The notes under the pieces are model-generated. The model was not told where the DNA came from. It worked only from the letters and a program-made list of their open reading frames with translations, and did not search any database. DNA of 22,729 bases, from the IMG/VR virus record IMGVR_UViG_2529293062_000009; one strand, 5' to 3'. Both the position numbers and the translations under genes were made by a program. Shown here piece after piece: positions 1,096 through 20,047 of the stretch (the stretch's first letter is position 1; every line of letters starts with the position of its first letter). Source of the stretch: a virus (lineage: Duplodnaviria; Heunggongvirae; Uroviricota; Caudoviricetes).

Positions 1096-1662
1096 TTAGC
1101 CTCTTATCTTGAATTCTGCTATAACTTTGCCGATGAATACAAGGTCATTAATGTTCATATCAACAATGATATTCCCATAGTTAATCTTAACTTTATTATC
1201 AGGAATTCTAATAACTTGTTTTATAGAATGCTTTCCATCAATGGAGATTAACCAATCACCATCAACTACATCTGTGAAATCCCTCTCAATAAAATAAGAG
1301 TTATTCCCGTTTGATATCACAGATGGTGATGATAAACCATCAGGAATGAACACCTTGTCAAACATTAGTGTTCCTGCATCCAATAGCACTCCATCAATCA
1401 ATTTTATTTTTTGAATATTGATGATGTCAGAAGTTAAATATTCATGTTTAGGAGGTAAGCCTGTTACCAGCCACTTTATGTTTACTCCTGTTTCGAGCGC
1501 GCACTGAATAACCCAATCAGAAGGGAATGAATCTCTCATGTAGCGTGTAGCAAGACTGCTTTTTGATATGCCTAGTTGTTCACATAACGCCTGTCTTGTA
1601 GTGAACCCATAGGCTTCAACCATCCTTTCGATAGCTTTCTTTCCACCTTGACTAAAATCCAT
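1096..1662 (-). CDS. cI: 186-type CI immunity repressor (N-terminal helix-turn-helix)
   Basis: Minus-strand ORF; start chosen at the internal ATG 1662..1660 (MDFSQGGKKAIERM...) with SD AAGGTG 6 nt upstream; stop TAA 1096..1098. HTH-like segment TRQALCEQLGISKSSLATRYMR. Divergent from the Apl-like gene. About 188 aa, similar to 186 CI. Confidence 0.75.
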   Translation of the reverse strand: MDFSQGGKKAIERMVEAYGFTTRQALCEQLGISKSSLATRYMRDSFPSDWVIQCALETGVNIKWLVTGLPPKHEYLTSDIINIQKIKLIDGVLLDAGTLMFDKVFIPDGLSSPSVISNGNNSYFIERDFTDVVDGDWLISIDGKHSIKQVIRIPDNKVKINYGNIIVDMNINDLVFIGKVIAEFKIRG

Positions 1663-1788
1663 CGATTTCACCTTGTGAACTTTATGGTTGACGATTTCAA
1701 TTTGTGATCTTATAGTCGCATTGATTTCAAAATGTGACTTACAACTACTCGTCAATGTTAAACACACTTAAACAGGAGATGTTGCCTT
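1663..1788. promoter_or_regulatory. Lysis/lysogeny switch region between divergent cI and apl-like genes, with three phased direct repeats (candidate operator/Apl sites)
   Basis: Direct repeats GATTTCA-N4-GTGA at 1664..1678, 1693..1707 and 1723..1737, spaced 29 to 30 bp; the first overlaps the cI SD and start. Confidence 0.5.
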
Positions 1789-2010
1789 ATGACTCAGCAC
1801 ATTTCAATCACATTAGCTGTCCCATCCATTTCGGTTGAAAAGTACAGTGAACTCACAGGGTTATCTGTAGACACTATCAACAGTATGCTCGCAGATGGAC
1901 GCCTTAAGCGGCATCGTCTTCGCAAGGATAAAAAACGTGAAAAGGTAATGATCAACATTGCAGCCATGACAGTGGATGCGCTTGCCGATTCCAATGTCGT
2001 AATCAATTGA
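1789..2010 (+). CDS. apl: Apl/Cox-like excisionase and switch regulator (small HTH protein)
   Basis: 73-aa ORF, ATG 1789, SD AGGAG upstream. First gene rightward of the repressor, as for Apl in 186 and Cox in P2. Basic C-terminal half (RLKRHRLRKDKKREK). Confidence 0.6.
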   Translation: MTQHISITLAVPSISVEKYSELTGLSVDTINSMLADGRLKRHRLRKDKKREKVMINIAAMTVDALADSNVVIN

Positions 2011-2042: not shown

Positions 2043-2552
2043 ATGTTTGATTATCAAGTTTCCAAACATCCACATTTTGACGAAGCCTGTCGTGCATTCG
2101 CACTGCGCCACAACCTGGTGCGACTGGCAGAACGTGCAGGCATGAATGTACAGATTCTGCGGAACAAGCTGAACCCAGCTCAACCTCATTTATTAACCGC
2201 ACCAGAAATCTGGTTGCTTACCGATCTGACTGAAGATTCAACGCTGGTAGATGGCTTTCTGGCACAGATTCACTGCCTGCCATGTGTACCGATTAATGAG
2301 GTGGCAAAAGAGAAACTGCCGCATTATGTCATGAGTGCAACCGCAGAGATCGGGCGTGTTGCTGCAGGTGCGGTATCTGGCGATGTAAAAACCAGTGCAG
2401 GTCGTCGTGATGCTATCAGCAGCATTAACTCTGTAACACGACTGATGGCGCTGGCCGCTGTTTCATTGCAGGCCCGTTTACAGGCTAATCCTGCGATGGC
2501 GAGTGCAGTTGATACCGTGACTGGCCTCGGTGCTTCATTCGGTTTGCTGTGA
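2043..2552 (+). CDS. cII: CII-like lysogeny establishment regulator (186 CII-type)
   Basis: 169-aa ORF directly after the apl-like gene, SD AAGGGG upstream; position and length match 186 CII (169 aa as recalled). Confidence 0.55.
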
Positions 2553-8604: not shown

Positions 8605-9519
8605 ATGCCATACCAATTGGTAGAGCTTAGCCCCGTAGCTAACGATCTTGAACAGTTAGGAACCAAAGAGAAGTTTTGGTTCTATTTCTCCGATGACACT
8701 GTAAATTTGCAGTTGTTTAAGTACTCTAGGCCAGGTACTGGCGAGCATTGGTCTGAAAAGTGTGCTGCTGAGTTATGTCATTTGCTTAACATTCCACATG
8801 CTAGCTATGATTTGGCGCGATACAATGGTCGATTCGGTGTGGTGACTCAGAATATCATTCCATCTGGTTTCCGGATGGTAATGGGAAATGAAGTGCTTCA
8901 CAGTTCGACATTCGATTATCCTGGGCCTTTACAAGCCGGGGAAAAGCCGGTAAGGGTCAGAGAACACACTGTCACAAGGGTCTTGGGTTGTTTAGATAGG
9001 GAATCTATCAAGCCTCCTCCGAGTGTATATGATCTAACCGGGCTAAATGCAGCAGATGTATTTTGTGGATATTTGATGCTCGATGCACTTGTGAGTAATC
9101 AAGATCGCCACCATGAAAATTGGGCAATCATGCTTAACAATGAAACTGGTGAGCAGTTTTTGTGTCCAACATACGATCATGCCGCTAGTTTAGGAAGGGA
9201 GATGTTAGATGATGAGCGTAACGAACGGCTTAATACTAAAGATAAAAATCGACAAATCCCATGTTTTGTAAGAAAAGCTCGCTCTGAGCTATTCAAAGCA
9301 AAAACTGATAAAAAGCCCTTGCTGACTGTTGAAGCATTTCAACATGCAGTTGAAGGGAGAGTTGCCGCTCGCGACCATTGGTTAGGTAAGTTGAGCGTTT
9401 TAACAGAAGATTCCATTACAGATGTGTTTAACCAAGTGCCTTCATCGTGTATATCCGACAGTGCACGTAGATTTGCAACGTTAATGGTAATGGAAAATCG
9501 CAGAAGGTTACTAGAATGA
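8605..9519 (+). CDS. HipA-like Ser/Thr protein kinase (compact, HipA C-terminal kinase core)
   Basis: 304 aa. Gly-rich loop-like GTKEKFWF (residues 19-26), catalytic DxHxxN as D167-R-H169-H-E-N172 within LVSNQDRHHENWAIM (nt about 9094..9120), downstream CPTYDHAASLG resembling the HipA Mg-binding Asp motif. Stop overlaps the next start (ATGA). Confidence 0.75.
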   Translation: MPYQLVELSPVANDLEQLGTKEKFWFYFSDDTVNLQLFKYSRPGTGEHWSEKCAAELCHLLNIPHASYDLARYNGRFGVVTQNIIPSGFRMVMGNEVLHSSTFDYPGPLQAGEKPVRVREHTVTRVLGCLDRESIKPPPSVYDLTGLNAADVFCGYLMLDALVSNQDRHHENWAIMLNNETGEQFLCPTYDHAASLGREMLDDERNERLNTKDKNRQIPCFVRKARSELFKAKTDKKPLLTVEAFQHAVEGRVAARDHWLGKLSVLTEDSITDVFNQVPSSCISDSARRFATLMVMENRRRLLE

Positions 9520-10256
9520 CTAATACAAACTCCGTTTACGTCGCATGGCAGGCACCAGATACCAGAGACTGGCATGTTGTTGGTAACTTGCAAGAGCGCA
9601 AATCGGGGTATGTTTTCAGGTATACCAAAGGTGCTCTTAAATCTTCTAAATTTACAAAGTTTAGCGGCATGAGTGATGTTCGTGAAACTTATGTATCGGA
9701 AGAATTGTTTCCTCTTTTTAAAAATCGCCTTTTATCACCGAGACGTCCAGAGTATCCGAGTTTCATTAAATGGCTTGGATTTGAAGAAGATAAGGTAAAT
9801 CCTATCGATATTCTTGCTCGCTCGGGAGGCTTACGAAGCACTGATCAGCTGCAGATTTTCAAAAAAATTGATTTTGATTCTGATGGTAACTTTGAGCATT
9901 TTTTCTTCTTACATGGACTTGGTTACTTGAATAGCTTAGCTAATGCTCGTGTATCTGAATTGAAACCGGGGCAAATTTTGCGTCTTTGCTTGGATCTTCA
10001 AAATGAATACGATGGGGATGCTGTTGTCGTTCGTGCAGATAAACCAGCTGAAATCGTTGGTTACTGCCCTAGGTATTTAAGTAATGACATCAAGAAGATG
10101 TTATTGGATGATCCAAAATCAATCACTTTAACGGTCGAAAAGATTAGCGATGATGCTCCTCATAACTATCGGTTATTATGTAAATTATCAGGGGTACTAA
10201 GCCAAGCCTGTCAATCGACGCTGATTCCTCAAGATGAGTTTGAACCTATTGAGTAA
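9516..10256 (+). CDS. HIRAN-motif protein (C-terminal HIRAN-like domain), partner of the HipA-like kinase
   Basis: 246 aa, translationally coupled to the kinase gene. C-terminal LRLCLDLQNEYDGDAVVVRADKPAEIVGYCPRYLSN matches the HIRAN pattern (NPYDxNAIxV...VGYIPR); N-terminal part unassigned. Confidence 0.55.
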   Translation: MTNTNSVYVAWQAPDTRDWHVVGNLQERKSGYVFRYTKGALKSSKFTKFSGMSDVRETYVSEELFPLFKNRLLSPRRPEYPSFIKWLGFEEDKVNPIDILARSGGLRSTDQLQIFKKIDFDSDGNFEHFFFLHGLGYLNSLANARVSELKPGQILRLCLDLQNEYDGDAVVVRADKPAEIVGYCPRYLSNDIKKMLLDDPKSITLTVEKISDDAPHNYRLLCKLSGVLSQACQSTLIPQDEFEPIE

Positions 10257-18211: not shown

Positions 18212-18605
18212 AGCGGTGCCTTATGTCCGCAATAACCCGGACAAACTGCATCTGTTTGTGGATAACGGTTCGCTGGTTGCCACGGGGGCCAGCTCCATGT
18301 CGTGGGAGTACCGTTACACACTGAACGCGGTGATTGAGGATTTCAGCGGCGACCAGAATCTGCTGATGGCCCCGGTTTTGCTGTGGCTGAGGGATAACCA
18401 GCCCGATGCCATCAATAACCCGGCGTTACGGGAAAAGCTATTCACCTTTGAGGTGGATATTCTGCGCAACGATGTCTGTGATATCAGCCTGAACCTGCAA
18501 CTGACGGAACGTGTGCTGGTCAGCACTGACGGCAGTGTGTCGAGCGTTGAAGCTATAGCGGAACCTGATGCACCTGAAGAAATGTGGACGGTGAAACGTG
18601 GCTGA
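18174..18605 (+). CDS. R: Tail completion protein (P2 gpR-type)
   Basis: Start chosen at GTG 18174 with SD AGGAG 18162..18166 (the track ORF begins at an upstream TTG); about 143 aa; position as P2 R. Confidence 0.75.
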   Translation: MNKPQSLRHALNKAVPYVRNNPDKLHLFVDNGSLVATGASSMSWEYRYTLNAVIEDFSGDQNLLMAPVLLWLRDNQPDAINNPALREKLFTFEVDILRNDVCDISLNLQLTERVLVSTDGSVSSVEAIAEPDAPEEMWTVKRG

Positions 18606-19044
18606 ACTGCAGAAGGTGGACGACTGGCTGAGTGCCTTGCTGGCGAATCTGGAACCAGCCTCGAGAAGCCGCATGATGCGCCAGCTGGCGCAGGAACTTC
18701 GCCGGACACAGCAGCAGAATATCAGGATGCAGCGCAACCCTGACGGCAGCAGCTATGAACCGCGACGGGTAACAGCACGCAGTAAAAAAGGCCGTATCAA
18801 ACGTCAGATGTTTGCAAAGCTGCGCACCACAAAATACCTGAAAACTGCCGCCAGCACCGACTCTGCCAGCGTGCAGTTTGAAGGCAAGGTGCAGCGCATT
18901 GCCCGCGTTCACCATTACGGCCTGCGAGATCGCGTCAGTCGTAAGGGACCGGAGGTGCGTTACGCAGAGCGTCGCCTTCTGGGTGTAAATGATGATGTTG
19001 AGGCAATGACCCGCGACATGATTCTGCAATGGCTGGCGGGGTGA
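18598..19044 (+). CDS. S: Tail completion protein (P2 gpS-type)
   Basis: 148 aa (P2 S about 150 aa as recalled); GTG start overlapping the end of R. Confidence 0.75.
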   Translation: MAELQKVDDWLSALLANLEPASRSRMMRQLAQELRRTQQQNIRMQRNPDGSSYEPRRVTARSKKGRIKRQMFAKLRTTKYLKTAASTDSASVQFEGKVQRIARVHHYGLRDRVSRKGPEVRYAERRLLGVNDDVEAMTRDMILQWLAG

Positions 19045-19048
19045 TCTT

Positions 19049-19066
19049 TGTATCAGCACTGATACA
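19049..19066. promoter_or_regulatory. Late-promoter activator dyad (TGT-N12-ACA) upstream of the baseplate operon (P_V-equivalent)
   Basis: Near-perfect palindrome TGTATCAGCACTGATACA, 47 bp upstream of the V start, in the S/V intergenic gap where P2 has P_V. Confidence 0.75.
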
Positions 19067-19112
19067 AGTTGCAGCACTGCCGCCTTTCTTCCCCTGATGG
19101 CAACCTTTCCCT

Positions 19113-19691
19113 ATGAACGCACAATTAACCGAAATCATGCGCCTTATCACCAACCTGATCCGCACAGGGGTAGTCACCGAAGTGGACAGGGAAAACTGGC
19201 TTTGCCGGGTGAAAACGGGCGAGCTTGAAACCAACTGGATCAGCTGGCTGACGCTGCGTGCCGGGAATGCCCGTACATGGTGGCGACCATCGGAAGGTGA
19301 GCAGGTGGTGCTGCTGAGTCTGGGCGGCAATCTGGAAACCGCCTTTGCGCTGCCCGCTGTCTATTCGAATCAGTTCGCACCACCGTCGACGTCGGCGGAC
19401 GCCTGCGTGACAGAACATCCTGACGGTGGCTGGTTTGAATACGAACCCGCCACCGGGCGCTGGTATGTCAGGGGCATCAAATCAATGGTCATTGAGGCTG
19501 CTGACAACATCACCATGAAAACCAGTGAGTTTGTACTGGAGGCTGACCGCACGCGCATTAACAGCGAAGTGGTGATCAATGGTGGCGTTACCCAGGGCGG
19601 CGGAGCGATGAGTTCTAACGGGATCGTGGTTGATGCGCATCAGCATACTGGCGTCCTGAAAGGCGGCGATACAACCGGAGGCCCGGTATGA
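19113..19691 (+). CDS. V: Baseplate spike/assembly protein (P2 gpV-type)
   Basis: 192 aa, first gene after the late-promoter dyad; order V-W-J-I-H follows. Confidence 0.8.
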   Translation: MNAQLTEIMRLITNLIRTGVVTEVDRENWLCRVKTGELETNWISWLTLRAGNARTWWRPSEGEQVVLLSLGGNLETAFALPAVYSNQFAPPSTSADACVTEHPDGGWFEYEPATGRWYVRGIKSMVIEAADNITMKTSEFVLEADRTRINSEVVINGGVTQGGGAMSSNGIVVDAHQHTGVLKGGDTTGGPV

Positions 19692-20047
19692 CGCTTTATA
19701 GCGGGATGAACAATACCAGCGGCAAAGTCATTACTGATATTGATCATCTGCGCCAGTCGGTGCGGGACATTCTGCTGACACCGCAGGGTAGCCGTATTGC
19801 CCGCCGGGAATATGGTTCCCTGCTGTCGGCACTGATAGATCAGCCACAAAATCCGGCATTACGCCTGCAGGTCATGTCGGCAGTGTATGTGGCGCTGAGT
19901 CGCTGGGAGCCACGGTTGACGCTGGATTCCATCACCATCAACAGCAATTTTGACGGTTCAATGGTGGTGGAGCTGACCGGGCGGCGGAATAACGGTGTGC
20001 CTGTGTCCCTTTCCGTATCAACAGGAGCAGAGAATGGCAGTGATTGA
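19688..20047 (+). CDS. W: Baseplate wedge protein (P2 gpW / gp25-like)
   Basis: 119 aa, SD GGAGG, ATGA overlap with V. Confidence 0.8.
   Translation: MTLYSGMNNTSGKVITDIDHLRQSVRDILLTPQGSRIARREYGSLLSALIDQPQNPALRLQVMSAVYVALSRWEPRLTLDSITINSNFDGSMVVELTGRRNNGVPVSLSVSTGAENGSD

Follow-up and report, generated by a model that had tools for sequence, protein, structure and literature searches.

Three near-identical 17-bp repeats over the pR promoter of an Escherichia coli prophage as probable operators of its 186-family CI repressor

Introduction

The switch of coliphage 186 is the closest described system to the one considered here. In the annotated 186 record, three CI sites lie within 57 bp, running from the cI ATG across pR, and seven Apl sites lie between pR and pL, with the −10 hexamer of pL placed 5 bp upstream of the apl ATG. 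Further 17-bp CI operators of 186 occur singly at FL (CTTCACTTAATGTGAAT) and FR (ATTCACTTTATGTGAAT), which lie ~300 bp away, one on each side, and as a pair at pB (ATTCACAAAAAGTGAAT and ATTCACGAATTGAGAAT, 32 bp apart). The pR operators are two turns (~21 bp) apart, the operators of the pB pair, 32 bp apart, are of the A type, and 186 CI is a wheel of seven dimers (PMC3675496). The Apl protein of 186 binds 6-bp direct repeats 10–11 bp apart, at least three of which must be adjacent for binding, and it also binds at attP; in P2-like switches, the convergent promoters are typically 40–60 bp apart (PMC7498355).

Here, we analysed a window (the whole stretch of 22,729 bp) in which an initial annotation had noticed three direct repeats between a cI-like and an apl-like gene. 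Judging from sequence comparison, these repeats most probably serve CI as the operators of a 186-like switch whose immunity specificity is new. The resulting operator map, which comprises O1–O3, the promoters pR and pL, and a candidate Apl array, is testable and concerns an uncharacterised 186-like immunity type, related forms of which occur in five genera besides E. coli.

Results

The gene content bore out the initial annotation, which had placed the repeats in a cI/apl switch region, and the matches of its genes showed this switch to be of the 186 type. The cI gene (1096–1662, minus strand) encodes a 188-aa repressor of the 186 CI family (PF07022, E = 1e−28; PF16452, E = 1.7e−26), labelled "phage repressor protein CI" in RefSeq, with an N-terminal helix-turn-helix domain (Phage_CI_repr) and a C-terminal oligomerisation domain (Phage_CI_C). 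Its residues 10–184 matched the crystal structure of coliphage 186 CI (PDB 2FJR, E = 4e−24), and a further match was obtained with 2FKD (E = 4e−8). The repressor, with its 188 aa, two domains, and 186 CI kinship, is not of the P2 C type, on which the initial annotation had drawn for an analogy. The apl/cox gene (1789–2010, plus strand), the first of the pR operon, encodes a 73-aa Cox-like excisionase/repressor (phrog_575, E = 3.6e−26), and it is followed by cII (2043–2552, plus strand), which encodes a 186-type CII activator (Phage_CP76, PF06892, E = 8.7e−42; phrog_101).

The segment is a prophage of E. coli. Of 5,426 complete genomes of this species, 17 carry the cI gene and the switch at an identity of at least 99.7%. 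Among annotated or deposited phages, none carried this cI and switch at high identity; homology resumed only inside apl, and the cII side alone matched annotated phages, at ~90%. For comparison, relatives of the CI protein were collected from six genomic loci (Rahnella, Yersinia ruckeri, Kluyvera, two Brenneria, and Hafnia) and from 24 viral contigs. Removal of duplicates left 20 non-redundant switches from six genera, counting E. coli, and these loci are not phylogenetically independent.

The early lytic promoter pR was located at 1688–1716 on the plus strand (TTGACG-17-TATAGT), where a promoter scan gave 10 of 12 matches, with a predicted start near 1723. This promoter is sigma-70-like and strong and points into apl–cII and the downstream genes; its −35 and −10 hexamers keep a constant offset from the cI ATG in the relatives, and its position corresponds to that of the annotated 186 pR. 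A lysogenic promoter for cI, pL, was predicted at 1779–1807 on the minus strand (TTGAAA at 1807–1802, a 17-bp spacer, and CAACAT at 1784–1779), with a predicted start near 1772. The pL hexamers were conserved in 20 of 20 switches, a conservation confounded by the location of the −35 hexamer within conserved apl codons, and their offsets from the apl ATG match those of the annotated 186 pL (TTGCGA-17-CATGAT). An alternative pL, formed by TTGACG at 1755–1750 with TTTTGA, was rejected, since the TTGAAA-17-CAACAT arrangement was kept in every switch and is positionally equal to the 186 pL. Measured between the predicted starts, pR and pL converge ~50 bp apart. The converging pR/pL-type promoters that had been proposed for this region were thus recovered, with a strong rightward pR facing a conserved leftward predicted pL.

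The sequence GATTTCANNNNGTGA matched exactly at 1664–1678, 1693–1707, and 1723–1737 on the plus strand, and these are its sole occurrences in the 22,729-bp window. At chance level, a mean of 0.01 matches was obtained, and none of 100 dinucleotide-preserving shuffles reached three; a repeat-finding program, run independently, returned the same family with start-to-start spacings of 29 and 30 bp, and when two mismatches were allowed, extra matches appeared at chance level only. The initial observation of three GATTTCA-N4-GTGA copies 29–30 bp apart is therefore sound by exact matching and by comparison with shuffles. The unit that had been described was too short, however, because the relatives show a conserved unit of 17 bp (1664–1680, 1693–1709, and 1723–1739; designated O1, O2, and O3). 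The three copies had also been placed about three helical turns apart on the same DNA face, which holds approximately: at 10.5 bp per turn, 29 bp corresponds to 2.76 turns and 30 bp to 2.86 turns, but the two steps add up to an offset of ~137 degrees from O1 to O3 if the DNA is straight B-form, and the three sites lie only loosely on one face. When the window and a complete prophage copy (L014) were scanned with a position weight matrix (PWM), O1–O3 scored 23–27 bits, and no other site exceeded 14 bits.

O1 (1664–1680, plus strand; GATTTCACCTTGTGAAC) is an exact motif match with a PWM score of 26.6 bits and spans about −59 to −43 with respect to the predicted pR start. It recurs, at +2/+3 relative to the cI ATG, in each of the 20 related switches. 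Its centre, CACCTT (1669–1674), is the cI Shine-Dalgarno sequence AAGGTG on the minus strand, and it has an internal dyad, TTCAC-CTT-GTGAA. The first copy had been described as overlapping both the ribosome-binding site and the start of cI; it does cover the Shine-Dalgarno sequence, but it ends one base short of the start codon (CAT, 1660–1662), which it only abuts. The centre of O1 differs from those of O2 and O3 because the GGTG of the cI Shine-Dalgarno sequence is kept there; this GGTG was retained in most relatives, and Brenneria has TGGAA instead. In the minus-strand RNA of positions 1655–1690, a hairpin made of UUCAC/GUGAA and CCAU/AUGG would pair part of the Shine-Dalgarno sequence and the AUG.

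O2 (1693–1709, plus strand; GATTTCAATTTGTGATC), identified by exact motif match, PWM, and conservation, occupies the pR spacer, beginning at the final base of the −35 hexamer and stopping 2 bp short of the −10 hexamer. It is symmetric in six of eight pairs (GAT..CAA.TTG..ATC), and a palindrome occupies this position in the pR spacer in other family members too (RE2010 and YenM_324). O3 (1723–1739, plus strand; GATTTCAAAATGTGACT), supported by the same three lines of evidence, covers about +1 to +17 of pR and is the best-conserved site across the relatives (GATTTCAAAATGTGAAC in L004, L005, L025, and L034). Together, O1–O3 cover pR, not pL.

Each repeat is a 17-bp imperfect inverted repeat, or pseudo-palindrome, with a constant asymmetry at positions 4–5. 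Across 23 distinct sites of the clade, the dyad about position 9 had a mean of 4.43 symmetric pairs of eight, against 2.0 expected, and column permutation gave p = 0.011 for the WIN-type sites, in which the left half is GATTTCA, and p < 0.001 for two sister types. The WIN-type sites are symmetric at positions 1, 3, 6, and 7 (G..C, T..A, C..G, and A..T), whereas positions 4–5 are always asymmetric, with TT in the left half and CA in the right half (read as its reverse complement), in all three sites alike. This dyad symmetry (4.4 of eight pairs versus 2.0) runs counter to the initial analogy with P2 C or Apl/Cox, according to which the repeats would be direct repeats rather than palindromes. 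The right half, GTGAAC or GTGATC (G12-T-G-A-A-[C/T]17), shares its register with the A-type operators of 186 (ATTCAC-N5-GTGAAT). In the Hafnia lineage, the left half is AATCAC or GGTCAC, giving the full A-type geometry, with both halves of the A type (AATCAC-ACCGT-GTGAAC). When scored on the matrix of the clade, the four A-type operators of 186 fell within the top 0.01–0.06% of random 17-mers.

Comparison with related prophage switches, which the initial annotation had named as a check, showed the repeats to be present and conserved in position in 20 relatives. All 20 switches had a pR of the TTGAC(G)-17-TATAGT kind with O2 in the spacer and O3 at the start site, and the operators were spaced by 28–30 and 30–32 bp. 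In several lineages, the site sequence changed in all three sites together: Brenneria has GATTCCAAAAGCRAWC, with GATTCCAAAAGC(A/G)A(T/A)C at all three positions; L041 and L044 have left halves GAT(C/A)ACA or GTCTACA in all three sites; and Hafnia has TCAC left halves. Such a concerted change of all copies within a lineage is expected of sites that are read by one lineage-specific protein. The CI helix 3 of Rahnella recurs unchanged in Brenneria, which has another right half-site, and in Hafnia, which has another left half-site; this helix therefore cannot be the sole determinant of the site sequence.

Within the CI protein, residues 1–68 (the N-terminal domain) are 72–85% identical among relatives of the clade, whereas the linker and C-terminal domain are 25–40% identical within the clade, and the C-terminal domain is 24% identical to that of 186. 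As far as the alignments show, the DNA-binding domain and its putative operators are a conserved module carried on very divergent oligomerisation domains. The usual pattern of immunity repressors is the reverse of this. In Klebsiella phage 4LV2017 (L015) and ST437-OXA245phi4.2 (L016), the annotated CI has ~313 aa (CDS 523–1464 and 523–1458, respectively), each gave two separate tblastn matches to the CI of the window, and an extra CI-like N-terminal segment is apparent, so that this protein is possibly a tandem helix-turn-helix repressor.

Downstream of O3, a second kind of repeat was found. In this region, autocorrelation over 11 related switches gave z = 6.6 at lag 10 and z = 4.4 at lag 20, values that are inflated by kinship, and a candidate Apl/Cox-type array was delimited at 1739–1776 (plus strand), with units TTACAAC at 1739, CGTCAAT at 1750, AAACACA at 1760, and AAACAGG at 1770, spaced by 10–11 bp. 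The candidate array lies between the pR start and pL, where 186 has its own array, and its geometry matches that of the 186 Apl operators. A matrix made from this array and scanned for copies at att found only that same array and is thus circular.

The identity of the sites correlated more with CI than with Apl (rho 0.76 versus 0.67; within one Apl type, 0.71 versus 0.46), in figures that come, like the z-scores, from related sequences, are hence inflated, and are confounded by shared ancestry. We therefore relied on the contrast between L025 and L044, in which Apl is 100% identical over the first 50 residues, the recognition helices of CI read SKSTLATRY and SKGTLANRY, respectively, and position 5 is changed (T5 to A5) in each of the three sites. 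Phage vB_EcoM-813R9 shares the Apl type of the window, ESSI2_ev040 has a more divergent form of it, and the repeats of both are unrelated (GTACCCAATTGGGTAC in 813R9 and TTCC-N6-GGAA in ev040). On the strength of these contrasts between repeats and Apl, together with the 10-bp array downstream, we attribute O1–O3 to CI and the array of short units to Apl.

No distal copies resembling FL, FR, or pB were found above chance, either by PWM scan of the window and the complete prophage L014 or by a 12-of-17 similarity search within 700–1000 bp of 12 related switches; because the distal sites of 186 differ from its pR sites, a search with the pR motif could miss distal ones here. Positions 2009–2025, in the apl–cII spacer, were tried as a distal operator and rejected, since they are conserved regardless of operator type and are more likely part of pE. 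Within this spacer (2011–2042), TTCGATTTTGAAATA is kept as TTCGATWTTG(C/A)RATA in relatives with quite different operator types; this sequence, at the position of FR/pE in 186, is probably the −10 region of a leftward pE (reverse complement CAAAAT/CAATAT). In addition, a 17-nt direct repeat, AGTGAAC(C/T)CA(T/C)AGG(C/G)TT, occurs at 1600–1616 in cI and at 1846–1862 in apl, and an inverted pair, GTTCAC...GTGAAC, occurs inside cI (1578–1583 and 1601–1606). Both contain the operator half-site word, but they lie in conserved coding sequence and may be due to chance.

Discussion

O1–O3 are likely to be three operators for the prophage's own 186-family CI repressor. Of the two possibilities named in the initial annotation, operators or Apl sites, the former very probably applies, the position of the repeats being kept in 20 switches, whereas the latter fits poorly, because the sites vary while Apl stays constant. 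A role of the repeats as Apl/Cox sites, through which the excisionase-repressor would repress both pR and pL, would agree with the binding of direct repeats by Apl/Cox proteins in P2/186 switches (PMC7498355). It would also agree with the Brenneria switches (L007 and L009), where the Apl type changes as well as the sites and CI helix 3 does not. We nevertheless regard this role as very improbable: the Apl units of 186 are 6 bp long at 10–11 bp, with a "101" arrangement left unbound, whereas the units here are 17 bp long at 29–30 bp; one Apl type accompanies at least four unrelated repeat types (WIN, Hafnia, 813R9, and ev040); the identical Apl N-termini of L025 and L044 go with different sites; and in the complete prophage no motif copy above 14 bits lies near att, int, or ogr. 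Moreover, a separate array with a 10-bp period exists downstream of O3. Still harder to credit is an action of the repeats in RNA, for example through cI leader hairpins that regulate translation, or an action on behalf of a host factor, for example through CRP-like TGTGA half-sites. A hairpin of the O1 palindrome could sequester the cI Shine-Dalgarno sequence and AUG (−7.7 kcal/mol, z = −2.2), and TGTGA is indeed the half-site word of CRP, but whole leaders folded no better than shuffles (z = −0.9 and +1.7), the outer stem of the hairpin is not conserved in the relatives, no Rfam matches were obtained, and no TCACA partner lies at CRP spacing. The lineage-specific, concerted change of the three sites, in turn, points to a reader encoded by the phage.

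It may also be asked how CI reads the sites. All three have the same orientation, which is kept in all 20 relatives, and the asymmetry at positions 4–5 is constant across the WIN-type lineages and shared by O1–O3, a feature that a purely symmetric dimer model does not predict. Furthermore, reading of direct repeats is within the reach of a phage repressor dimer, as the example of P2 C demonstrates (PMC2995052), and CI might, like P2 C, read GATTTCA...GTGA as a directly repeated word, in a polar array without the dyad of a symmetric dimer. This seems unlikely, since the repressor is not homologous to P2 C and the 186 CI operators FL, FR, and pB are inverted repeats. In addition, the dyad of the unit is significant, both halves of the sites of Hafnia and of L041/L044 are of the TCAC/ACA type, and perfect palindromes are found at the O2 position in other family members. 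Shearwin, Dodd and Egan are said to have found in 2002 that 186 CI accepts two kinds of recognition sequence, and such dual recognition could explain the mixed half-sites.

Read as CI operators, the repeats resemble those at pR of 186, the locus of its vir mutations, in the family of the repressor and in having three sites that run from the cI start over pR, with the central one in the spacer; the convergent pL downstream and an Apl array between the promoters (here a candidate array) are likewise shared. The difference is that the 186 pR operators are dissimilar in sequence and span 57 bp at a spacing of ~21 bp, whereas the repeats here are near-identical and span 76 bp at 29–30 bp. The two-turn (~21 bp) spacing of 186 pR was thus not found; the spacing was 28–32 bp in the 20 relatives. 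Like the A-type operators of 186 (the pB pair, FL, and FR), the repeats are inverted units of 17 bp that carry a TTCAC/GTGAA half-site in matching register, but WIN-type sites match them by the right half only. The pB pair is also similar in its roughly three-turn arrangement over a promoter (32 bp, start to start) and differs in comprising two sites at a late-activator promoter, 32 bp apart, rather than three at pR, 29–30 bp apart.

The likeness to other described systems is more distant. The operators O1 and O2 of P2 C belong to the same kind of switch, with face-to-face promoters and repeats in one orientation flanking promoter elements, but they are two non-palindromic direct repeats read by an unrelated short repressor (PMC2995052, PMC1904268). 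The arrays of 186 Apl and P2 Cox consist of direct repeats in the same switch region, with 6-bp units at 10–11 bp, a geometry that the array at 1739–1776 fits and the 17-bp units do not. The lambda OR1-OR2-OR3 operators are likewise three 17-bp pseudo-palindromes over a lytic promoter beside the repressor gene, and binding there is cooperative; however, they are 23–24 bp apart, the promoters are divergent, and the fold and oligomerisation of the repressor are unrelated.

The spacing of adjacent operators was also considered in other members of the family. It is 30 and 33 bp in ev040, 29 and 32 bp in YenM_324, and ~31–32 bp in RE2010, while HP1 has two palindromes 27 bp apart and 813R9 has only two clear sites, ~60 bp apart. 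In the clade of the window, the ~30-bp register was kept despite C-terminal domains at 25–40% identity. We tentatively suggest, as a possibility rather than an expectation, that ~29–32 bp (2.8–3 turns), and not the two turns from which the 14-mer wheel model of 186 was derived (PMC3675496), is the natural register of adjacent operators in this and apparently several other branches of the 186 CI family, with the operators as hetero-dyads of fixed polarity; on these comparisons, it may be 186 pR that is the unusual case in spacing. A three-turn spacing would fit the ~180–200 bp that 186 CI occupies in AFM and TPM (PMC3675496). If the suggestion is true, the ~30-bp register would amount to a natural test of the "three-turn" alternative for the 186 CI footprint discussed there (PMC3675496). 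If CI forms a wheel here, a wrap of 7 × 30 = 210 bp would result, with a progressive offset of 50–85 degrees per step, and the DNA would then have to follow a ramped or over-twisted path; that this CI forms a 14-mer wheel is assumed, its C-terminal domain being only 24% identical to that of 186.

In the model that we propose, CI binding, oligomeric state, cooperativity, transcription start sites, and the interference mechanism are all inferred. One CI dimer would occupy each 17-bp operator through its N-terminal helix-turn-helix domains, and dimers joined through the C-terminal oligomerisation domain would bind cooperatively at O1–O3, 29–30 bp apart. RNA polymerase would be kept off pR by CI bound at O2, in the spacer, and at O3, over the start. 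The chief task of O1, which lies upstream of the −35 hexamer, would be to anchor cooperative binding. Silencing of pR would lessen transcriptional interference on the convergent, weaker pL, and in this indirect way CI would maintain its own production, as in 186. The target of Apl would be the separate array of short repeats, spaced by 10 bp, between pR and pL. The conserved ~30-bp register offers natural material on how operator spacing relates to wheel geometry in 186 CI, and the conserved DNA-binding domain and operators, set against the divergent oligomerisation domain, are likewise material for studies of the 186 CI wheel. Beyond the 186 CI field, the repeats are an ordinary, expected kind of regulatory element.

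Several further features of the prophage were observed around the switch. In phage 186, cI and int are adjacent. In the lysogenic operon examined here, cI is followed by a gene for an AAA_21/AAA_15 ATPase, a gene for a DUF4276 protein, and then int. The ATPase and DUF4276 genes lie at 3–1094 of the window on the minus strand, where they are cut at the window start, and the full genes are present in L011 at 18866–19999 and 18266–18862. The pair matched the A and B components of the PADLOC candidate defence system HEC-01 (E = 2e−154 and 6e−63) and looks like cargo inserted into the immunity operon. Two overlapping genes on the plus strand, at 8605–9519 and 9516–10256, lie between the replication and portal genes and encode a 304-aa protein with a weak HipA_C match and a 246-aa protein with a HIRAN domain, respectively; this pair matched the A and B components of the PADLOC candidate system PDC-M03 (E = 2e−122 and 7e−93). 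At the same spot, other copies of the prophage carry an AAA ATPase with a toxin-17 domain protein (L011) or a TIR protein (L014). Just past int in L014, outside the window at ~42950–43260, there is a small gene encoding a highly repetitive Gly-rich protein with YTGPGGG units.
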